Notes: generated from the letters alone by a model not told the origin. 64,000 nt of DNA from Alphaproteobacteria bacterium (GCA_964291415.2 OZ219920.1:768001-832000); one strand, 5' to 3'; positions 34,286-44,331 are shown, numbered from the stretch's first letter. A program made the numbers and translations.

Positions 34286-34409
34286 GAGTCCTGCTCCCGT
34301 TCCTTGACCTGGCGGGCGTCTTGTCCAATGCCTTGCCACGTGCGTCAAGTCCCCCGCTGCCCTGATGCCCTCCACCCCGGGAGCGTTGAGACACGCTCAC
34401 GGCTGGCCT

Positions 34410-34997
34410 ATGAATCATCCCATGCAGCGTGACCGCGTCCTGATTCCCGTTGAAGGCCTGCGCCTCGCGGCTCTGGGAATCCTCGCGAGCAGGGGGCCGA
34501 TGGACTACGCCGCCCTTGCCACCGCGGTGCGCCTGTTTGCCACGAGCTACGGTGCGTCGCCTGTCGATGTGATGTCGTCCTCCATCGAGCTCCTGCGGTT
34601 CGAGGGCCTGATCGCGATCGGCGACGAGGGTGAGGATGCCGGCAGCGCCCGGGTGACGCTGATGCCCGGGGGACGCGACGAACTCGAGCGCCTCATGCTC
34701 GCGCCGGTCAGGGTTTCCAGCGCCTCCTCGAGACTCATGGTGGCTCTCAAGATCCGTTTCTTTCGCCTCCTCGACACGACAGGACAACGACGGCTGGCCG
34801 AGGTGCTGGGCGATACCCTGAGGAGCGAGAGCGCGCGTCTTGTCAATCTGCGTCGTCACATGGAGGGTGAGGATCCCGGGTTCCTGGCGTGGCTCGACCG
34901 TGATATCGCGCGCACCGGGGAGGATCTGGCGTGGCTCGAGGAAGAGGAAGCGTTGATGACGCGACAACGGCCACGCGATGACGATACATCCACCTGA
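34410..34997 (+). CDS. Conserved hypothetical protein, probable winged-helix (PadR-like) fold, divergent from ccr
   Basis: LRLAALGILASRGPMDYAALATAVR...ELLRFEGLI...VTLMPGGRDELERLM, followed by a helical C-terminus. Confidence 0.65.
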   Translation: MNHPMQRDRVLIPVEGLRLAALGILASRGPMDYAALATAVRLFATSYGASPVDVMSSSIELLRFEGLIAIGDEGEDAGSARVTLMPGGRDELERLMLAPVRVSSASSRLMVALKIRFFRLLDTTGQRRLAEVLGDTLRSESARLVNLRRHMEGEDPGFLAWLDRDIARTGEDLAWLEEEEALMTRQRPRDDDTST

Positions 34998-36360
34998 GAG
35001 CATTGCCTCCGTCTGGCACGAGGCGGAGGCCATCGTCCGTCTTGCGGTCCCGCTCATCCTGACGCACCTCGCGCACATGGCGATCATGGCGACGGATGTC
35101 ATCATGATGGGGCGCATCGGTACCGAGACCATCGCCGCCGGTTCCCTGGCGCGGGACTTCTACTGGGTCATGGTGGCGTTCGCGATCGGCGTGCTCACGG
35201 GAGCGACCCCGGTCATGGCCCAGCACCTGGGGGCCCGCCGTTTCCGGGCGATCCGTCCGGTGGTGCGCAACGCGGCCTGGTTGTGTCTGCCGCTCACGGT
35301 GACCGTTGCGGTCCTTGCCTGGTACGCCTCGCCGATCCTCGTCATGTTCGGCCAGGATCCGGCCATCACCGCCCTGGGAGAGGCCTACCTGCGGGTCATG
35401 ATCTGGGGTCTCCTGCCGTCCCTGTGGTTCGTTGTCCTGAGCGAGTTCCTTGCCGCCCATGCCAGGCCCAGGGCGATCGTCGTGGTCACGGTCCACGCCA
35501 TCGCACTCAACGCCCTTCTCGACTACGCCTTCATGTTCGGCAAGCTCGGCGCCCCCGAACTCGGCCTCGTGGGCGCGGGCGTCGCCAGCGTCATCGTCAA
35601 CTGGGCTATGTTCGGCGCGCTTCTCTGGTTCGTGCATGCCGACCGGCGCCTGCGGCGCTACCGCCTGCTGGGCTATTTCTGGCGGCTCGATCGCGGCGTG
35701 ATGAAGGAGGTCGCCTTCCTCGGCGGGCCGATTGCCATCACGGAAGTCGGCGAGATGGGCCTCTTCTTTGTCACCACGATCATGATGGGCCTGATCTCGA
35801 CGGAGATGCTCGCTGCCCACGCAGTGACCGCCCAGTGCTATGCCTTCGTCTTCATGATTCCGGTCGGCTTTGCCCAGGCGGCAGCGGTGCGTGTCGGCCG
35901 CGGCGCCGGCGCCGGCAGTCCCGAGTGGTCTGCCCGTTCCGGCTGGATGGCGGTGACGCTCTCGGGAATCACGGTCCTGGCGCCCGTCATCGCCTTCTGG
36001 TTCTTCGGAACCGAACTCTCCTCGCTCATTCTCGACGCCGACGATCCCGCCAACGCCCACGCCCTGGGTCTTGCCGTGAGTCTGCTCAGCGTTGCCGCCA
36101 TCTTCATGCTGAGCGATGCGGTGCAGATCACGGCACGCGGCGCGCTGCAGGGACTCAAAGACACCGCGATTCCCATGGTCTACAGCGTCGCCACCAACTG
36201 GGGCCTCGGTCTCCCCTGTGCCGCTGCCTTCGGATTCTGGTTCGGCTGGTCCGGCGAAGGGATCTGGGCCGGCCTCGCCGTGGCCACCACCGGGGCGTCG
36301 CTGCTCCTCATCACCCGGTTCCGCAACCGTCTGCGGATCTTCCATGAGAGCGTCAGGTGA
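34978..36360 (+). CDS. MATE family efflux transporter
   Basis: LAVPLI, DVIMMGRIG, 12 TM pattern, GALQGLKDT. Confidence 0.92.
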   Translation: MTIHPPESIASVWHEAEAIVRLAVPLILTHLAHMAIMATDVIMMGRIGTETIAAGSLARDFYWVMVAFAIGVLTGATPVMAQHLGARRFRAIRPVVRNAAWLCLPLTVTVAVLAWYASPILVMFGQDPAITALGEAYLRVMIWGLLPSLWFVVLSEFLAAHARPRAIVVVTVHAIALNALLDYAFMFGKLGAPELGLVGAGVASVIVNWAMFGALLWFVHADRRLRRYRLLGYFWRLDRGVMKEVAFLGGPIAITEVGEMGLFFVTTIMMGLISTEMLAAHAVTAQCYAFVFMIPVGFAQAAAVRVGRGAGAGSPEWSARSGWMAVTLSGITVLAPVIAFWFFGTELSSLILDADDPANAHALGLAVSLLSVAAIFMLSDAVQITARGALQGLKDTAIPMVYSVATNWGLGLPCAAAFGFWFGWSGEGIWAGLAVATTGASLLLITRFRNRLRIFHESVR

Positions 36361-36459: not shown

Positions 36460-37860
36460 ATGCTGAGGAACACCAGGTACGACGCCAGTGAACTGTGGCA
36501 GAAGGACCACGACCACGTCATTCATCCGTGGACGGATTTCTCACGATGGGACGACAAGGGTTCCGAGATCATGGCCGAGGCCGATGGCATCCATGTCTAC
36601 GACAGCCACGGCAACCGGTTCATCGACGGTATCGGCGGACTGTGGTGCGTCAACATCGGCTACGGCCGCGAGGAGATGGCCGAGGCGATTGCCGAACAGG
36701 TGCGCGCCATTCCCTACTACTCGCCGTTCCACCATCTCTCGACCCCGCCCGCAGGCCTTCTCGGGGCAAAGATCGCTTCCCTGACACCGGGAACCCTCGA
36801 TCACATGTTCTTCGGCACGGGCGGCTCCATGGCCAACGACACGGCCGTGCGCTTTGTCCACTTCTACTGGAACAACCTCGGCCGCCCCAACAAGAAGAAG
36901 ATTGTTTCCAGGGTGGACGCCTACCATGGCATGACCTACATGGCGGCGGCTCTGACCGGCATCGCCTACGACAAGATCGGCTTCGACCAGGCCGACGAGA
37001 TGGTGGTGCACGTCGCCTGTCCCTACACCTACAGGCGCCCCGAGGGCATGACCGAGGCCGAATTCTGCGACTGGCTGGTCGAGGACTTCCGCAAGCGCGT
37101 CGAGGAGGTCGGTGCCGAGAACATCGGCGCCTTCATCGCCGAACCCGTCATGGGCGCAGGCGGTGTGATCGTCCCTCCGGAGGGGTATCACAAGCGCATG
37201 TTCGAGGTCTGCAAGGCCAACGAGATCCTCTACATCTCGGATGAGGTGGTGACCGGGTTCGGCCGGCTCGGCCACTTCTTTGCCTCGGAGGACGTGTTCG
37301 GCATCGTTCCGGACATGATCACGTCGGCCAAGGGCATCAGCTCGGGCTATCAGCCGCTGTCGGCGACCATCGTGTCCCAGGAGGTGTACGACGTCCTCTC
37401 CACGCCCCAGGCCGACGGAGCGCTCTTCACCACCGGCTTTACCTATTCGGGCCATCCGGTGTGCTGCGCTGCCGGAATGAAGAACATCGAGATCATGGAG
37501 CGCGAGGACATACCCGGCCACGTGCGCAAGGTCGGCCCCTACTTCGAGAAACGCCTCGCCGAACTCAACGACCTGCCGCTGGTGGGTGAAACCCGCGGCA
37601 AGTGCTTCATGCTGGGTGTCGAGAACGTCGCCAACAAGGAGACCAAGGAGCTGTTGCCTGCGGAGGTCAATGTCGGAGAGCGCATTGCCGAACATGCCCA
37701 GGCGAACGGAGTCATCGTCCGCCCCCTCGGTCACCTCAATGTCATCTCGCCGCCGCTTATCATGACGGAAGCACAGATCGACGAGTTTGTCGGCGTCCTC
37801 AGGGGCGCCATCCTGGCGACCCAGGACGACCTCGTGCGCGAGGGGCACTGGAAGGGTTGA
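36460..37860 (+). CDS. Class III (omega-amine) aminotransferase
   Basis: DGIGGLWCVNIGYG, AYHG, FIAEPVMGAGG, DEVVTGFGRLG, TSAKG. Confidence 0.92.
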   Translation: MLRNTRYDASELWQKDHDHVIHPWTDFSRWDDKGSEIMAEADGIHVYDSHGNRFIDGIGGLWCVNIGYGREEMAEAIAEQVRAIPYYSPFHHLSTPPAGLLGAKIASLTPGTLDHMFFGTGGSMANDTAVRFVHFYWNNLGRPNKKKIVSRVDAYHGMTYMAAALTGIAYDKIGFDQADEMVVHVACPYTYRRPEGMTEAEFCDWLVEDFRKRVEEVGAENIGAFIAEPVMGAGGVIVPPEGYHKRMFEVCKANEILYISDEVVTGFGRLGHFFASEDVFGIVPDMITSAKGISSGYQPLSATIVSQEVYDVLSTPQADGALFTTGFTYSGHPVCCAAGMKNIEIMEREDIPGHVRKVGPYFEKRLAELNDLPLVGETRGKCFMLGVENVANKETKELLPAEVNVGERIAEHAQANGVIVRPLGHLNVISPPLIMTEAQIDEFVGVLRGAILATQDDLVREGHWKG

Positions 37861-37881
37861 AAGCAGGCCCGGCGGTTTCCG

Positions 37882-38556
37882 TCAGGGATCGCCGGGCACG
37901 CCGTAGCTGGGCGTGTTGCCGGGATCGAGGGCCCGCGTGACGTAGTCGTCCATTTGCGGGCCGAAGACATCCCACACGCGCCTCAGTTCGGCGATGGGTT
38001 CGTCGTGCCAGTCGACCCTGAGGTCGCACACCGGCCACTCGTGTTGGTGGCAGACCTTGATGCCTACCGAGCGCACCGGACCCATTTCGCCTCCGGCTTC
38101 CTCCCCTGCCTCCAGACCGCCGAGCAGGCGTTCCACGAAGGGGGCGTCGGCTGCCGCCTCGAAGGCGCGCACCATGGCGGTGGGAACGCCGGTGCTCGAA
38201 AGCAGGTTGCCGGCGGCAACGGCGTCTTTGCCTTCGGCGACCGCATGGGTCCCCAGGGTGCCCGAGCCCGAATGATGGGCGGTGTGTCCCAGGGAGTCGA
38301 TCATGGCGAGCTGGCGGTAATCCGGCCAGGCCCGCGCCTCGACGAGAATCGCCATGGCCCGTGCCGCGCCGTATCCCCGGGCCAGAAGGTCGAGGCCCAT
38401 GAGGCCCAGACCCGGGTCGGTGATGTTCTGGCTGGCGACGGCTCCGACATGGCCGCGCACCCAGGCGCAGCGGGCAGCGACGGCCGGGCTCGAGGAGGTG
38501 ACCACCACCCCGAACATGCCGGTTCTCCGGCAGCGGGCGGTCAGCGAAAACGTCAT
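37882..38556 (-). CDS. DUF1028 family protein (Ntn-hydrolase-like)
   Basis: MTFSLTARC, GAVASQN, AAGNLL, EAGGE, DLRVDWHDEP. Confidence 0.9.
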   Translation of the reverse strand: MTFSLTARCRRTGMFGVVVTSSSPAVAARCAWVRGHVGAVASQNITDPGLGLMGLDLLARGYGAARAMAILVEARAWPDYRQLAMIDSLGHTAHHSGSGTLGTHAVAEGKDAVAAGNLLSSTGVPTAMVRAFEAAADAPFVERLLGGLEAGEEAGGEMGPVRSVGIKVCHQHEWPVCDLRVDWHDEPIAELRRVWDVFGPQMDDYVTRALDPGNTPSYGVPGDP

Positions 38557-38969
38557 GGTCCGTCCTCCGGGATGACCGCATCGACATCGATTTCCATCAG
38601 CATCTCGGGCCTGGCCAGGGCCTGCACGACCAGGCCAGTCGACACCGGGTAGACTCCCTTGAGCCAGCGCCCGATGACATTGTAGACCGGTTCCCGGTGG
38701 CGCGGGTCCGTCAGGTAGATGGTGATCTTGCAGATGTGGTCGAGCTCGCTGCCGGCTTCCTCGAGCAGGCGCTTGACACAGGACATCGCCATCTCGGCCT
38801 GGGCGGCCGGATCGCCTACGCCATGGAAACTGCCATCGAGATCGAAGCCGGTCTGCCCGCGCATGAAGACGTGGTTGCCGGCTCTCACGACCATGCAGAG
38901 ATCGTTGTCGAGCGTCTGCTCCGGGTACATGTCCCGCGTGTTGAAGGTTCTGAAACGCTGGTGTGCCAT
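38553..38969 (-). CDS. RidA family protein (enamine/imine deaminase)
   Basis: HQRFRTFNTRDMYPEQTLDNDLC, RGQTG, YPVSTGLVVQALARPEMLMEIDV. Confidence 0.9.
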   Translation of the reverse strand: MAHQRFRTFNTRDMYPEQTLDNDLCMVVRAGNHVFMRGQTGFDLDGSFHGVGDPAAQAEMAMSCVKRLLEEAGSELDHICKITIYLTDPRHREPVYNVIGRWLKGVYPVSTGLVVQALARPEMLMEIDVDAVIPEDGP

Positions 38970-38999
38970 GAGGACTCCTGATGATTGGGCCGCTTCCCT

Positions 39000-40448
39000 C
39001 TACCGCGACATGACCCTGTCGGACAGTCCGGCGGCAGACTTGACGAACTCCAGCGGTCCGTTGAAGTCGAAGTTCCGGTAGACCGCGGCCAGGTGGGCGA
39101 AGGGCGGCGACTGGGCAAAGAGCTGGAATGTCACCTTGTGACCGGCGTAGTCGGAGTTGACGAGGTCGCGTCCGAAGGCGAGCAGGCGCCGCCGGTCCTC
39201 GGCCTGCCAGTCATCGTTCACGTTGTAGTACTTGTCCATCCACTCCTTGGTCTCCGGCGCGGTGAAGGCCGGACTGTCGGGTGTGACACAGATCTGCCCG
39301 CCGCACAGCTCGCGGGTGAGATGCATCATGGCCGGCAACTGGGTGCAGGCCAGCACGCGCCCGGTGAAGAGCAGCGATGGATTGGGCATCAGGTAGCCGG
39401 CCGGGCTGCGCTTTGCTTCGGCGATGGCCGCCGTCAGGTGGGCGTTGATGCCCTCGCGATAGCAGGCGAGCTGGGAGAGCTTTTCCATCACGGCCTGCTG
39501 GCGATCGAGGCCCGTCTGCCTGACGTTGAACAGGGCGGTGCCGATCATCAGGTCCGCCATGTGCAGGATGCGCAGCACGAACATGTAGGCGCTGTAGCGG
39601 TGCAGGGCGGCGCGGATGTAGACCGCCGCCTGCGTGTGGCGGTAGAACAGGATGTTCTCCCAGGGCACCAGGACGTTGTCGAAGATGAGCAGGGTGTCGA
39701 CCTCATCGAAGCCGTTGGACAACGGATAATCGGCCACAGGCTTGACGCCGGCGAATCCGCTGCGGCAGATGTGCTTGAGGTTGGGCGCATTCATCGGACA
39801 GATGAAGCCAAGCGCATAGTCCGAGAGCTTCGCGTCGCCCCAGTTGGCAATGGTTGGCTTGACGAAGGCCTGGTGGGCGTAGGCGGCCGCCGTCTCGTAC
39901 TTGGCGCCCCTGACAATGATGCCTGAATCGGTCTCCTTCACCACGTGAAGCAGCATGTCGGGATCCTGGTCCTGCGGCGCCTTGGAGCGATCTCCCTTGG
40001 GGTCGGTGTTGGCCGAGACGTGGAAGATGTCGTTGCCGAGAACATTGGTGATGTGGCGGTCGATGTTCTCGGCCCAGGAGCTGTCGACCTGGTTGAGGAC
40101 ATCCTTGCCGTCGGCAAGCGACCACAGTTCACCGACAGTCTCGTCACCGATGCGGGTCACGACACCGCCGATCTCCTTCATCACCATGTCGATCCACTCG
40201 CGCTTGGTCTGCCAGTCCTCGCGGGTGAAGGGCGGCTGCCAGGCGGTGGCGAAGGTCTCGCCGTTCTCCTCGAAGGTGAGGGTGTCCCTGAAGCGCTCTT
40301 CGTGGGCCATGTCGTAGACCCGGGCACGAACGTCGACGATCGGCCGGAAGGCCGGGTGATCGGGAACGCTCTTCACCCGTTCGCCGGAGATGTAGACCTC
40401 TCGGTCGTCACGCAATGAGTCGCGGTACTCTCTGCCGGTCATCAGCAT
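39000..40448 (-). CDS. 4-hydroxyphenylacetate 3-hydroxylase (HpaB/PvcC)-family flavin monooxygenase, oxygenase component
   Basis: TGREYRDSLRDDREVYISGERV..VPDHPAF, DPKGDRS, GIIVRGAK, YPLSNGFDEVD, FDNVLVPWE. Confidence 0.9.
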   Translation of the reverse strand: MLMTGREYRDSLRDDREVYISGERVKSVPDHPAFRPIVDVRARVYDMAHEERFRDTLTFEENGETFATAWQPPFTREDWQTKREWIDMVMKEIGGVVTRIGDETVGELWSLADGKDVLNQVDSSWAENIDRHITNVLGNDIFHVSANTDPKGDRSKAPQDQDPDMLLHVVKETDSGIIVRGAKYETAAAYAHQAFVKPTIANWGDAKLSDYALGFICPMNAPNLKHICRSGFAGVKPVADYPLSNGFDEVDTLLIFDNVLVPWENILFYRHTQAAVYIRAALHRYSAYMFVLRILHMADLMIGTALFNVRQTGLDRQQAVMEKLSQLACYREGINAHLTAAIAEAKRSPAGYLMPNPSLLFTGRVLACTQLPAMMHLTRELCGGQICVTPDSPAFTAPETKEWMDKYYNVNDDWQAEDRRRLLAFGRDLVNSDYAGHKVTFQLFAQSPPFAHLAAVYRNFDFNGPLEFVKSAAGLSDRVMSR

Positions 40449-40516
40449 CTGACATGTCCTTCCCTTGCTGAAGCGAGCGCAGAGGTTGACAGGATTGCGG
40501 CTTCCAGCAAAACATT

Positions 40517-40539
40517 TTCTATCGACACATTGCATAGAA
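40517..40539. promoter_or_regulatory. LysR-type T-N11-A operator
   Basis: Perfect inverted repeat TTCTAT-N11-ATAGAA between the divergent monooxygenase and lysR starts. Confidence 0.7.
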
Positions 40540-40543
40540 TAAA

Positions 40544-41483
40544 TTGATACGCTACACGCTGAAACAGTTGCGCTACTTCACCGCCGCCGCCGAAGCCGGG
40601 AGCATTTCGGGTGGCGCCGAGCGTTGCGCTGTTTCCCAGCCCTCCGTGTCCGCTGCGGTTGCGCATCTCGAGGACGTGCTCGGCGTTCAGCTCTTTGTCA
40701 GACAGCACGCGCGGGGTCTCGCCCTGACGCCGGCCGGCCGGCGCCTGCACACAGCCGCCCAGGCCCTTCTCCTTCAGGCAGATGAACTCGCCGAGGAGGC
40801 CGGCGGTCTTGCAGGGGGCCTTTCCGGCGATCTTGATGTCGGCTGTTTCGTGACCTTTGCTCCCATCGTGCTGCCGGGCCTCCTGCGCGTCCTGGCGGCG
40901 AAACAGCCCCTGATCCGCATCAGGCCCCACGAGGACGACCTGCGGGCATTGCAGCATGGCCTGCGCAACGGCCGCTACGAGGTGGCGCTCACCTACGATC
41001 TCAACCTGGAGAAGGACATTGCCTTCGAGCCCGTGGTCCCGGTCCCGCTCTACGCCGCCTTGCCGGCGGACCACCGGCTGGCTTCGGCGGCGGTGCTCGA
41101 CCTTCGCGACCTGGAGGACGAACCCCTGGTTCTCCTCGGTCTGCCCGACAGCCGCGGGCATTTTCTCTCGCTCTTTGCCGAAGCCGGATTTGAACCCGAC
41201 ATTGCCTACGAGACGCGGTCCTTCGAGATGGTGCGGGGCCTCGTTGCCAACGGCTACGGTTACGGGCTTCTCCATACCAGAGCGCCACACAACCGGACCC
41301 TGGACGGCTCAAGCCTCGTCTGCGTGCCGATCAGGGAACCTCGCCGCGCGATGCACATGGGCCTGGCGCGATTGAAACAGGCGCGGTCCACGGGCATGAG
41401 CGATGAAGGCTTCGAGCGCCGCCTTCGGCGATGTCTGCCATGCCCACCTCGGCGGCCTCCTCGACAACGGGGCGCTGCCGTGA
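40544..41483 (+). CDS. LysR family regulator; frameshift near the 3' end (~41400)
   Basis: YTLKQLRYF...SISGGAERCAVSQPSVS HTH and a substrate-binding domain. The natural-looking C-terminus SAAFGDVCHAHLGGLLDNGALP* is in another frame and ends at 41483. Confidence 0.85.
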
Positions 41484-41492
41484 CTCTCGCCG

Positions 41493-42305
41493 TCAAGCGC
41501 CAAAGAAGGCCGTCGCCGAGTCGGCAGCGGAGACGTCGGCCAGATTGAAGTGGAAGGCCGGTCCGGCGCCGCCATCAACGACGATGTCGGAGCCGTTGAT
41601 CCAGGCTGCGTCCTCGGAGAGGGCGAAGACGATCACTCTGGCAACGTCTTCCGGGAGGGCATTGCGTCCTCCCGACTGCGCCTTCAGACGATCCAGGAGG
41701 TCGGCCCCCATCGTGTCGTAGAAATGCCTGAGGAGTGGCGTTTCGACGGCACCCGGACTGACGGAAAGCGACCGCACGCCATAAGGACGCGCCAGCATCG
41801 ATCCCGCCATGGCATAGACGATCACGACTTCCTTGGAAAAATCATAAGAGTCCGGACCGCTCATCGGGTGGTCGCGGACCCACGCCAGTCCCGCGGCATA
41901 GGTGCGTTGGCGAAGCAGCTCGCGGACGAGATCGAGACGCTCCCGCCACGCGTGGCCGGCGTCCGAGGCCACATGGACGATCGCACTGGCGGGTTGCAGC
42001 CGCCCCAGGAGTGACTCGGTGACGTGGCGCAGACCCAGGACATTGACCCGCATCACCGCCTCGCCGTCGTGGCTCCCGGGCAGGCCGGCAACGTTGACGA
42101 GTCCGTGCAGGGGTTCATCGATTGCCGCGAGCGCCGCATCGATGGAAGCGGGATCGGTGAGATCGAAGCGATGGAATTCATCGACGCCGTCGCCGTCGCC
42201 GTTGGCATCGAGCCCGATGACCCGGACTCCGCGTTCGCGCAACAGCGTTGCCGTCGCCCTGCCGATCCCGGAATGGGTTCCGGTCACCACGATGGTCCGC
42301 TTCAT
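41493..42305 (-). CDS. SDR oxidoreductase (coniferyl-alcohol dehydrogenase / 3-alpha-HSD-like)
   Basis: TGTHSGIG, NVAG, YDFSK, SVSPGAVETP, VVDGG. Start overlaps the P450 stop. Confidence 0.88.
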   Translation of the reverse strand: MKRTIVVTGTHSGIGRATATLLRERGVRVIGLDANGDGDGVDEFHRFDLTDPASIDAALAAIDEPLHGLVNVAGLPGSHDGEAVMRVNVLGLRHVTESLLGRLQPASAIVHVASDAGHAWRERLDLVRELLRQRTYAAGLAWVRDHPMSGPDSYDFSKEVVIVYAMAGSMLARPYGVRSLSVSPGAVETPLLRHFYDTMGADLLDRLKAQSGGRNALPEDVARVIVFALSEDAAWINGSDIVVDGGAGPAFHFNLADVSAADSATAFFGA

Positions 42306-43546
42306 GCGTTCAACCGCACCGGCGTGTAGCGACAGGGCAGGTGGCGCATGCCGTTGATGAAGAGACCGTTGATTTCCCGCATGCCGTCGAGATCCACGTC
42401 GAGGTCGGGAAGCGTCTCGAAGAGAACCTTGAAGAGGTGATACATCTCGCGCCGCGCAAGGTGAATGCCCAGGCAGTGGTGAACGCCGCCGCCGCCGAAG
42501 CCGACGTGATCGTTGGGCGATCGTCTGATGTCGAAACGCTGGGGGTCGTCGAACACGGTCTCGTCGCGGTTGGCCGAGACATACCAGAACACCACCTGTT
42601 CGCCCGCGGCCACGCGCTGGCCGAGAATCTCCGTGTCGCGGGCCACCGTGCGACCGAAATGCACGACGGGACTGGCATACCGGACGATCTCTTCCATCGC
42701 TGTCGCCGCCAGTCCGTCGTAGTCCTCCCGCCAGCAACGCCACTGGTCGGGATGCCTGGCGAGAAAGCTCATTCCCTGGCCCAGCGAACTCGAGGTGGTG
42801 TCGATTCCGGCGGTAATCAGAAGCTGAAAGTAGATCCCGATGTCGTAGTCACGGAGTTTCTGCCCATCGACCTCGGCGGCGATCATCATCGAGACGAGGT
42901 CGTCGCCCGGCGCCTTGCGCCGGGCGCGGCATATCTCTTCGCCATAGGCGTTGAGAGCATAGAAGGCGGCCATGGACTCCTCTTCGTCGCCACCCAGTTC
43001 ATCACCGTATCCCTGGGCCACGATGCTGAGGCGGGCCAGCTCGTCGCGGTCGTTGCCCTCCGGGACGGCGAGCATGTCGCAGATCACCTTGGTGGGCATG
43101 CGGCTGGCGATGTCGCCGGCGAAATCGCACTGGCCGCGCTCGCTGATCTCCGCGATCACGGTGCGGGCCGAGGCGGCGATGGCGCCCTCGAGGTCCCGCA
43201 GCAGGCGCGGCGTGAAGGTCTTGGCCAGAATGCCCCTCAGACGCGGGTGAACGGGAGCGTCCCGGTTGACCATGCCGGCGACGTCGTAGGCAATGTCGGG
43301 GCCGTCGATGGTGGTCATGCCGGTCCCGTAGTGTGACAGGAAGAGCTGTGCGTTCCTGGTGATGTCGCGTGTTTCCCGGTGCCTGGTGAGCGACCAGTAG
43401 GTCGTGTCGCTGTCCGGCACCGATTGCAGCGAGATCGGTTGTTCCCGGCGGAAGCGGGCCAGAATGTCGTGCTTGTCGGGCCGACTCCAGAACGCCGGTT
43501 CGGCAAGACAGATCCCGTCCAGGCTCTCTGTGGCCGCTTGTGTCAT
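42302..43546 (-). CDS. Cytochrome P450
   Basis: I-helix LITAGIDTT, EEIVR, SANRDE, FGGGGVHHCLG heme motif. Confidence 0.93.
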   Translation of the reverse strand: MTQAATESLDGICLAEPAFWSRPDKHDILARFRREQPISLQSVPDSDTTYWSLTRHRETRDITRNAQLFLSHYGTGMTTIDGPDIAYDVAGMVNRDAPVHPRLRGILAKTFTPRLLRDLEGAIAASARTVIAEISERGQCDFAGDIASRMPTKVICDMLAVPEGNDRDELARLSIVAQGYGDELGGDEEESMAAFYALNAYGEEICRARRKAPGDDLVSMMIAAEVDGQKLRDYDIGIYFQLLITAGIDTTSSSLGQGMSFLARHPDQWRCWREDYDGLAATAMEEIVRYASPVVHFGRTVARDTEILGQRVAAGEQVVFWYVSANRDETVFDDPQRFDIRRSPNDHVGFGGGGVHHCLGIHLARREMYHLFKVLFETLPDLDVDLDGMREINGLFINGMRHLPCRYTPVRLNA

Positions 43547-43602
43547 GGACCCATTATCGGCGACAGACTCATGGACGCAACAGCATGGACCGGTGTCGCG
43601 GT

Positions 43603-44331
43603 TCAGACGAGGTGCTGGCCGCCGGTCACCATGATCTCGGTGCCGGTGACGAAAGCGGCGTCGGCGGAACACAGGTAGACAATCGTGCCGGCCACCTCGT
43701 CGGCGGTTCCCATGCGCCCCAGGGGAATTCGCGGCACGAGGTCCTGGTAGTCCTCCGACACCATGGCGGTCTCGATCTCGCCGGGCGACACGGCGTTCAC
43801 CCGGACATCGAGATGGGCGAACTCCGCCGCCATTTCCCGGGTCAGCGCCGACAGCGCCGCCTTGGAACACGCGTAGGCGCTGCCCGCGAAGGGGTGGATT
43901 CGGTGACCGGCGATCGAGGTGACGTTGACGACGGTACCCTTGCCCCGGTGCAGCGCCGCGGCAAACCCCCGGGCGAGAATGAGCGGGGCGAAGAAGTTGA
44001 GGTCGAAGACCTCGCGCCAGTGATCGAGGCTGCCATTGAGGGTACCGAGGCGTTCGGCGAAACTGGTCTTCGGAGAAACCCCCGCGTTGTTGATGAGGGC
44101 GTGGACCGGCCCGTCGCCGATGATGCCGCTGGCGCGGGCGATGAAGGATTCGAGACTTCCTTCATCCGAGAGATCGGCCGGAAAATGGTGATGTGGCGAG
44201 TCCGCCACCCGCCTGTCCTCCGGGATGTCGTCGCGCGAGCAACTCAGGACGCGCCAGCCTTCCTCGTAGAACCGGATGACTGTCTGGTGTCCGATGCCGC
44301 GGCTGGCCCCGGTGATGATCACTGTCTTCAC
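43603..44331 (-). CDS. SDR oxidoreductase
   Basis: TGASRGIG, NNAG, YACSK, NAVSPGEIET. Confidence 0.9.
   Translation of the reverse strand: MKTVIITGASRGIGHQTVIRFYEEGWRVLSCSRDDIPEDRRVADSPHHHFPADLSDEGSLESFIARASGIIGDGPVHALINNAGVSPKTSFAERLGTLNGSLDHWREVFDLNFFAPLILARGFAAALHRGKGTVVNVTSIAGHRIHPFAGSAYACSKAALSALTREMAAEFAHLDVRVNAVSPGEIETAMVSEDYQDLVPRIPLGRMGTADEVAGTIVYLCSADAAFVTGTEIMVTGGQHLV

Follow-up and report, generated by a model that had tools for sequence, protein, structure and literature searches.

An HpaB-family oxygenase in a RidA-DUF1028-LysR gene cluster of an alphaproteobacterium: a predicted variant of the imidazole-4-acetate branch of histamine catabolism

What is the substrate of an HpaB-family oxygenase that is encoded with RidA, DUF1028 and a LysR-type regulator instead of with genes for phenol degradation? 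The question is raised by a locus in a 64,000-nucleotide (nt) stretch of DNA from an Alphaproteobacteria bacterium (GCA_964291415.2, OZ219920.1:768001-832000), hereafter called the window, in which a Pfam scan recognised five genes between positions 36460 and 41548: an aminotransferase, a DUF1028 protein, a RidA-family protein, an HpaB-family oxygenase and a LysR protein. A first-pass annotation had placed the locus at 36460..41483 and had suggested that the HpaB-type enzyme holds the position of HinF, as a non-orthologous replacement, in a pathway like the Hin pathway of Pseudomonas. The genes are where that annotation put them, but the LysR open reading frame (ORF) ends at 41548. The replacement itself gains support from comparative evidence, namely a HinK-like LysR, the orthology of RidA and DUF1028, a largely exclusive distribution of the two oxygenase types and the exchange of Tyr104 in the oxygenase. 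The locus is most likely a compact variant of the imidazole-4-acetate branch of bacterial histamine catabolism, that is, a known pathway in a newly predicted form. We put the probability that the operon oxidises imidazole-4-acetate at roughly 0.65, and consider it very probable that its substrate, oxidised by Hin-like chemistry, is either this compound or a closely analogous N-heteroaryl-acetate.

As presented in PMC8231116 and PMC6467879, hinFLHG corresponds to PA5393-PA5390, HinK to PA0218 and hinC to PA0221. According to the same sources, HinF is an FAD monooxygenase (EC 1.14.13.5) and HinL an enamine deaminase, both HinH and HinG are amidases (the latter annotated in PAO1 as 'probable peptidic bond hydrolase'), and HinC is a histamine-pyruvate aminotransferase. 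HinK is described as activated by imidazole-4-acetate (ImAA) and as controlling hinFLHG, with binding to the promoters of hinD and hinF in the presence of ImAA (PMC8231116). The window resembles the Hin pathway, known from P. putida U and P. aeruginosa PAO1, in three respects. The pathway has a LysR-type activator, and HinK is the best solved relative of the window's LysR; a flavin monooxygenase is followed by a RidA-type protein and then by an amidase-type hydrolase, an order also found in the window; and HinC is a class III aminotransferase, as is the enzyme encoded nearby in the window. The two differ in that a two-component HpaB-family oxygenase stands in place of the single-component FMO-like protein, and in that the window's cluster lacks a HinG-type M20 protein, a HinD-type aldehyde dehydrogenase and a transporter. 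In addition, the window's regulator is adjacent and divergent, whereas the Hin regulator lies at the hinDAC locus.

The window's LysR scores 229 and 228 bits over residues 1-283 against Protein Data Bank (PDB) entries 3FZV and 6M5F, and the next PDB match reaches 100 bits; 6M5F is listed in a review table as HinK of P. aeruginosa. LysR proteins beside two FMO-type clusters (L119 and L118) match HinK at 226 and 187 bits. There are 13 LysR helix-turn-helix matches in the genome, and a search with the window's LysR returns one further match only, at 31% identity. These comparisons point to a HinK-type regulator, presumably an activator responsive to imidazole-4-acetate.

Similar kinship is seen for the two small genes of the operon. 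The DUF1028 protein matches PF06267 along its full length (profile positions 1-193 of 193), its nearest solved relative being 2IMH (55 bits). Only one DUF1028 copy and one HpaB-subfamily gene are present in the whole genome. A quick maximum-likelihood tree of DUF1028 was built with IQ-TREE from 89 rows, leaving out ten near-identical close relatives and high-scoring segment pairs shorter than 170 amino acids (aa). All 85 Hin-type copies in it group into a single clade (SH-aLRT 99), and inside this clade copies linked to HpaB and copies linked to FMO or histamine dehydrogenase interleave; the FMO label needs 5 changes on this tree, and the starred branches force at least 3. DUF1028 proteins outside the clade share 25-39% identity with that of the window. 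RidA is 49-76% identical to the RidA proteins next to DUF1028 in HpaB- and FMO-type loci, and the only other RidA-like match in the genome stands at 45.5%. Judged by these identities (49-76%) and by the DUF1028 clade, RidA and DUF1028 are orthologous to their counterparts in operons with FMO, M20, HinK-like LysR and histamine dehydrogenase genes. RidA is presumed to be a HinL-type enamine/imine deaminase, and DUF1028 a HinH-type amidase acting on the ring-opened product.

The FMO-type clusters connect this module to histamine. An FMO-like protein of about 430-446 aa with a Pyr_redox_3 domain is found in 5 of the 12 genomes of our Gammaproteobacteria sample (see below) that carry a Hin-type DUF1028, encoded either beside RidA-DUF1028-(M20) or at another place, and a protein search places many Pseudomonas-named proteins in the same FMO family at 74-77% identity. 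At two loci, L097 and L129, the order FMO-RidA-DUF1028-M20 is the F-L-H-G order. Alphaproteobacterial FMO-type loci run FMO-RidA-DUF1028-(aldehyde dehydrogenase)-LysR-histamine dehydrogenase-M20. Of the solved histamine dehydrogenases, 6DE6 is matched by the enzyme of locus L135 at 1227 bits and 3K30 at 820 bits, and its score against trimethylamine dehydrogenase is 509 bits; because it scores best against histamine dehydrogenases, the FMO-type module is read as a histamine pathway. Across the 13 FMO-type loci, histamine dehydrogenase was counted in 6, aldehyde dehydrogenase in 5, M20 in 7, a PhyH dioxygenase in 1 and a Rieske oxygenase in none. Two Dongiaceae loci, L028 and L033, have the arrangement HpaB-RidA-DUF1028-LysR-histamine dehydrogenase, with HpaB in FMO's place, and the dehydrogenase of L033 scores 1069 bits (6DE6), 948 bits (3K30) and 558 bits (trimethylamine dehydrogenase). 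A third locus, L043, is ordered HpaB-reductase-RidA-DUF1028-aldehyde dehydrogenase-LysR-histamine dehydrogenase. The RidA-DUF1028-LysR block is thus found beside a histamine dehydrogenase either with FMO (L130, L132, L135-L137) or with HpaB (L028, L033, L043). The window differs from these clusters in having no dehydrogenase adjacent; paralogues encoded in its genome are taken up below. Within the FMO-type clusters, a pyridoxal-phosphate-dependent decarboxylase gene (Pyridoxal_deC; L132:11816-13159) was seen between the histamine dehydrogenase and M20 genes, and a 308-aa flavin-reductase-domain protein and a luciferase-like monooxygenase are encoded just upstream of another cluster (L130:2376-4336).

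The window's oxygenase has both domains of its family, HpaB_N (PF11794, 278.7 bits) and the C-terminal HpaB domain (PF03241, 181.3 bits), and so shares the fold family of HpaBC (T. thermophilus 2YYG-2YYM, E. coli 6QYH/6QYI). Among solved proteins it comes closest to the HpaB of T. thermophilus (TtHpaB), at 173 bits, and its best solved relatives as a group are 4-hydroxyphenylacetate (4-HPA) and chlorophenol hydroxylases. However, it falls far under both NCBIfam HpaB equivalog cut-offs (TIGR02309, 228.2 against 480.2 bits; TIGR02310, 169.8 against 885.2 bits). In true HpaB, PMC10537072 describes a conserved catalytic set, Arg100-Tyr104-His142, that binds the phenol hydroxyl, and Ser197 as carboxylate ligand. 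A HMMER alignment in TtHpaB numbering indicates that Arg100, which stabilises the flavin hydroperoxide, is kept as R99 and that the carboxylate position still holds a Ser/Thr residue (Ser197 to Thr199), whereas Tyr104 is replaced by Glu103 and the His142 column holds Ser145. Residues R99, D102, E103, T104, H143, S145 and T199 are invariant in 200 of 200 subfamily sequences, an alignment composed of the window's protein, the HpaB ORFs longer than 440 aa from 80 related loci and the 120 best database hits, some near-duplicates among them. The Tyr-to-Glu change lies within a helix, where the alignment is secure; the His142 column lies in a loop. With Arg and Ser/Thr kept but Tyr104 turned into an invariant Glu, the site suggests one for an aryl-acetate that no longer binds a phenol. 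We propose that the protein is the oxygenase component of a two-component FADH2-dependent monooxygenase that would hydroxylate imidazole-4-acetate or a close analogue. A protein search returned more than 120 clusters at 70% identity or above, all annotated simply as HpaB family, with database labels such as '4-hydroxyphenylacetate 3-monooxygenase' and '4-hydroxyphenylacetate 3-hydroxylase family protein'.

The oxygenase subfamily was defined by at least 60% identity, and a scan of genome contigs kept 80 loci at 67-98% identity. These loci are spread over Alphaproteobacteria, Gammaproteobacteria (Arenicellales among them), Caballeronia/Burkholderia, Streptomyces and Gaiellales, and several belong to candidate taxa associated with sponges, for example Poriferihabitaceae and Ca. 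Persebacter. Neighbours were counted by tblastn within 8 kb of the oxygenase at set identity thresholds, with some loci cut by contig ends, and their families were assigned by Pfam/NCBIfam scans of cluster representatives. RidA was found near the oxygenase in 72 of the 80 loci, DUF1028 in 68 and a LysR of the window's type in 67. An ArgE-like M20 gene occurs in 25 loci and a copper amine oxidase in three; Gaiellales loci carry the latter. Like HpaBC, an oxygenase of this type would also need a separate flavin reductase, and a reductase gene adjoins 34 of the 80 loci, the cluster-linked reductases scoring best against the RutF model. In some loci a GbcA-like Rieske oxygenase alpha subunit (for example L036:9941-11107) or a PhyH dioxygenase (for example L019:6899-7765) is encoded between RidA and DUF1028; one guess at the role of these inserts is N-demethylation of a methylated imidazole acid.

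Whether the two oxygenase types exclude each other was examined in two genome samples; genome G300 was left out of all counts. A DUF1028 model search of 300 species of the class holding Caballeronia (Gammaproteobacteria) matched 23 genomes. In 12 of these the DUF1028 protein is 49-57% identical to the window's, and the others with a tblastn match stand at 25-39%. Seven of the 12 carry HpaB only (66-75% identity) and five FMO only; one HpaB-only genome (G001) has a 39% FMO paralogue and one FMO-only genome (G115) a 29% HpaB paralogue. The alphaproteobacterial sample comprised 301 genomes including the window's, with a DUF1028 threshold of at least 46% identity. Among its 33 DUF1028 genomes, 19 have HpaB only, 8 FMO only, 3 both (G340, G517 and G594) and 3 neither (G408, G571 and G587). 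Pooled, 26 of the 45 genomes with the DUF1028 clade carry HpaB only, 13 FMO only, 3 both and 3 neither, so that 39 of 45 hold exactly one oxygenase. Given DUF1028, the two are negatively associated (Fisher p = 0.0014 for Alphaproteobacteria and 3e-6 pooled), although these p values overstate the association because related genomes are not independent. Mutual exclusivity, which the first-pass annotation had named as a survey to be made, therefore holds for the large majority of genomes but is not strict, as co-occurrence was seen at some loci and in some genomes. An in-frame TGA interrupts the FMO gene of G003 (C23:15969-17180) and of G517 (C21:1210740-1211957, locus L143), and the HpaB-RidA-DUF1028 cluster is intact in both; these FMO genes may be decaying copies of the displaced enzyme. 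The window's own genome has no FMO orthologue, the best match being 36-37% identical. The HpaB subfamily is present in 25 of the 301 alphaproteobacterial genomes, 22 of which also carry the DUF1028 clade; the other three (G367, G393 and G401) gave no DUF1028 match. In G401 (L148:8001-12564), HpaB and RidA are followed by an EamA transporter and then by an amidohydrolase with an imidazolonepropionase-like composite domain, so a HutI-like enzyme may take the place of DUF1028 there.

Several observations weigh against a simple one-for-one replacement of HinF and against the reading of this locus as an imidazole-4-acetate operon. The equation of HinF, HinL, HinH and HinG with FMO-like, RidA, DUF1028 and M20 proteins is drawn from published names, functions and gene order rather than from direct alignment. 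Pseudomonas HinH in particular is presumed to be a DUF1028 protein from the first-pass annotation and from gene order. A minority of the best 120 relatives of an FMO-cluster DUF1028 are named, and no Pseudomonas name occurs among these. The papers found under the locus tags PA5391-PA5393 name no protein family, and there is no Hin-specific NCBIfam model, the FMO-like proteins matching the MSMEG_0569 family only, below its cut-off. In the oxygenase, the invariant His143 sits two residues before the His142 column and could replace His142, so that loss of the catalytic His is not established.

The state of the window's genome (G000, listed with 8.99% contamination) counts on the same side. No flavin reductase is encoded in the window, and three PF01613 genes lie elsewhere in the genome. 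A HinG-type M20 gene is likewise missing from the window, the best genomic match being 44% identical (C2:871009-872151), and for aldehyde dehydrogenase the genome's best match stands at about 40% identity. Six paralogues of the histamine/trimethylamine dehydrogenase family are encoded in the genome, 48-58% identical to the cluster-linked histamine dehydrogenases, which suggests a broad capacity for amine oxidation. Three genomes with neither oxygenase hold the DUF1028 clade in other contexts. In two of these, G571 (L145:2587-6694) and G587 (L147), the same-clade DUF1028 was observed beside hydantoinase/oxoprolinase A/B genes, or alongside genes for a nucleoside hydrolase, for a 2OG-Fe(II) oxygenase and for a protein like glutamine synthetase.

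The alternative that these observations bring closest is that module and chemistry are unchanged, an N-heteroaryl-acetate being hydroxylated on its ring before RidA and DUF1028 act, but that the HpaB-type enzyme acts on something other than imidazole-4-acetate, such as an imidazole-acetate bearing an N-methyl group or some other substituent, or a different acid of the imidazole or azole kind, and that the FMO type remains the true ImAA monooxygenase. At three loci, L020 (5119-9886), L052 (7449-13038) and L072 (2548-6421), the only ones of the 80 with an FMO-like gene nearby, the FMO and HpaB genes are both intact and adjoin each other in an operon that also includes RidA and DUF1028; either the replacement is in transition there, or the two enzymes differ in substrate. 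Both oxygenases are also found in G340, G594 and G401, and in G340 LysR, histamine dehydrogenase and FMO are at one locus and LysR/HpaB-RidA-DUF1028 at another. Histamine-entry genes are rarer beside HpaB (histamine dehydrogenase in 3 of 80 loci, the L043-type aldehyde dehydrogenase in 1) than beside FMO, and Rieske (26 of 80) and PhyH genes (8 of 80) are commoner there; histone-deacetylase-like amidohydrolases (7 of 80) and agmatinase-like genes add to the neighbours of HpaB, such genes standing at 0-1 of 13 beside FMO. These patterns hint at a different or modified feed compound, and because of them and the dual-oxygenase loci the substrate of the HpaB-type enzyme may, in some lineages, be a related imidazole acid that is perhaps modified. 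Nevertheless, exactly one oxygenase is the rule among genomes with the DUF1028 clade, L028 and L033 have HpaB as sole oxygenase in an otherwise canonical histamine-dehydrogenase cluster, the window's LysR is as close to HinK as are the LysRs of FMO clusters, and the window's own cluster includes no Rieske or PhyH gene. We consider a different substrate for the window's enzyme unlikely, at perhaps one chance among several.

An ordinary 4-hydroxyphenylacetate or phenol 3-hydroxylase, with RidA and DUF1028 as bystanders, would be what the Pfam domains, the best solved relatives and the database annotation announce. That reading is barely credible in view of the scores far under the equivalog cut-offs, the invariant Glu in place of Tyr104, the strict cross-phylum linkage to RidA, DUF1028 and a HinK-like LysR, the Hin-type DUF1028 in 22 of the 25 HpaB-positive genomes of the 301 sampled, and the lack of ring-cleavage or hpa genes near the locus: neither an HpaC-type flavin reductase nor hpa meta-cleavage genes are among the window ORFs scanned. 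It is also quite improbable, if less markedly so, that the trio serves another nitrogen-heterocycle or amino-compound pathway, of the hydantoin, pyrimidine or guanidino type, and that the likeness to Hin reflects shared enzyme families. The DUF1028 contexts in genomes with neither oxygenase would fit such a pathway, as would an NCS1 purine/allantoin-type permease in Streptomyces loci and agmatinase- or creatinase-like genes in some others. The HinK-like regulator does not fit it, nor do the histamine dehydrogenase, amine oxidase and aldehyde dehydrogenase genes linked to several HpaB loci or a layout identical to that of FMO-type histamine clusters. The logic of the imidazole-4-acetate reading itself has a parallel in the Rut pyrimidine pathway (RutA/RutF/RutC/RutB), where a two-component flavin monooxygenase acts on an N-heterocycle and the reactive ring-opened products are handled by a hydrolase together with a protein of the RidA family. 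Its luciferase-like oxygenase RutA is of an unrelated family, however, and hydrolase family and substrate differ too. The trigonelline/homarine route was considered and dropped because the hom operon is described as encoding an FAD protein with its partner, a peptidase and also an aldehyde dehydrogenase, which is not the HpaB/RidA/DUF1028 set.

The layout of the locus is given in Table 1. The region is GC-rich, at 63-68% around the locus. The start of the oxygenase gene is most likely the ATG at 40448, giving a protein of 482 aa, because a GGAAGGA-type ribosome site lies upstream of it, the HpaB_N domain of the long ORF does not begin until residue 33, and relatives measure 480-484 aa; the divergent intergenic region is therefore 95 bp long. 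The RidA and DUF1028 genes overlap by 4 nt and are translationally coupled. A perfect T-N11-A box between LysR and the operon had been noted earlier, and indeed the motif TTCTAT-N11-ATAGAA, TTCTATCGACACATTGCATAGAA, occupies positions 40517-40539. It is the sole match in the window at up to 1 mismatch, and none of 100 shuffles contained any match. Its offset from the LysR start is the same in close relatives (L002-L010, L014 and L063), with one arm mismatch in four of them. When the DNA upstream of the LysR genes was searched for 6-bp T-N11-A palindromes, the window's box turned up in close kin alone, and elsewhere there were scattered ATAGAT-like half-sites.

Table 1. Features of the locus in the window, and histamine/trimethylamine-dehydrogenase-family (HDH-family) paralogues in the same genome (G000)
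Feature	Location	Strand	Basis
Class III (omega-amine:pyruvate type) aminotransferase	36460..37860	+	Pfam Aminotran_3
DUF1028, Ntn-hydrolase superfamily	37882..38556	-	Pfam DUF1028, 208.6 bits
RidA-family protein	38553..38969	-	Pfam Ribonuc_L-PSP, 70.8 bits
HpaB-family oxygenase component	39000..40448 (long ORF 39000-40535)	-	Pfam HpaB_N + HpaB
Divergent promoter region with LysR box	40449..40543	.	Read from sequence
LysR-type regulator, probably of the HinK kind, TTG start	40544..41548	+	Pfam HTH_1 + LysR_substrate
HDH-family paralogue	C1:1106324-1108381		
HDH-family paralogue	C2:1124723-1126777		
HDH-family paralogue	C2:839206-841263		
HDH-family paralogue	C4:897402-899471		
HDH-family paralogue	C1:98637-100673		
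HDH-family paralogue	C4:1547634-1549643		

The aminotransferase, on which the operon had been described as converging, is separated from DUF1028 by a 21-nt gap. It matches Pfam Aminotran_3 at 271 bits and NCBIfam PRK07036 at 720 bits against a cut-off of 618, and its nearest solved relatives are amine, polyamine and putrescine:pyruvate transaminases. The enzyme is a candidate for a step from an amine (histamine-like) to the aldehyde, as catalysed by HinC, although its kinship to these transaminases, which fits a HinC-like role, is not specific to that role. A window-type aminotransferase was found near the oxygenase in 19 of the 80 loci, 17 of them close kin; of 19 close relatives, 17 have the gene beside their HpaB cluster. 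A copy of 65% identity lies inside the HpaB cluster of L024/L025, and one of 53% identity adjoins the aldehyde dehydrogenase in the FMO-type locus L138. The link to the operon is weak outside close kin, and the gene may belong to the upstream unit because it is co-directional with genes for an AphA-like (PadR-type) regulator and a MatE efflux protein. These two genes lie directly upstream of it (34365-36360, plus strand), in an order kept in close relatives.

Further ORFs flanking the locus encode a Zn-dehydrogenase, a class I/II aminotransferase, a short-chain dehydrogenase/reductase (SDR), a cytochrome P450, a universal stress protein and a PNP oxidase. In agreement with the first-pass annotation, scans of the flanking window ORFs with Pfam and NCBIfam turned up neither a flavin reductase nor an M20/ArgE-like gene, and neither an aldehyde dehydrogenase nor a ring-cleavage dioxygenase. 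The SDR, which is coniferyl-alcohol-dehydrogenase-like, and the P450 are encoded downstream of LysR on the opposite strand (41493-43870, minus strand) and are retained in some close relatives only; their long ORF calls overlap, and the true starts lie later.

Read as a variant of the imidazole-4-acetate branch, the locus could work as follows. The HinK-like LysR would bind the T-N11-A box in the 95-bp region and, with ImAA or a close analogue as co-inducer, would turn on the three-gene operon. The HpaB-family oxygenase, supplied with reduced flavin by a reductase whose gene lies elsewhere in the genome, would hydroxylate the imidazole ring beside its acetate side chain, the task of the single-component FMO-like HinF, to give imidazolone-acetate. 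RidA, in a HinL-like role, and DUF1028, in a HinH-like one, would then act on the ring-opened imine/formimino intermediate, leading to formyl-aspartate and aspartate. An amine may enter this pathway through the convergent omega-transaminase.

The subfamily extends to Gammaproteobacteria, Burkholderiaceae, Streptomyces and Gaiellales, and full-text searches found, in the literature covered, no paper that assigns an HpaB-family enzyme to imidazole-acetate or histamine clusters. We lean slightly towards a general conclusion, that this widespread 'HpaB' subfamily consists of two-component imidazole-ring monooxygenases rather than phenol hydroxylases, in which the invariant Glu in place of Tyr would activate the imidazole N-H, and that on several independent occasions it has taken the place of the FMO-type imidazoleacetate monooxygenase in a single conserved RidA-DUF1028-HinK module. 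If this is true, it would provide the first non-phenolic azole substrate for HpaB-type group D flavin monooxygenases and would add azole-ring hydroxylation to the reaction range of enzymes that are widely used in biocatalysis. The annotation of a large cross-phylum subfamily, at present named '4-hydroxyphenylacetate 3-hydroxylase family protein', would be corrected. The module would also represent a clean case of repeated non-orthologous displacement inside a fixed catabolic unit, and the turnover of histamine and imidazole-acetate would be extended to many marine (including sponge-associated) and soil bacteria that lack the Pseudomonas-type enzyme.

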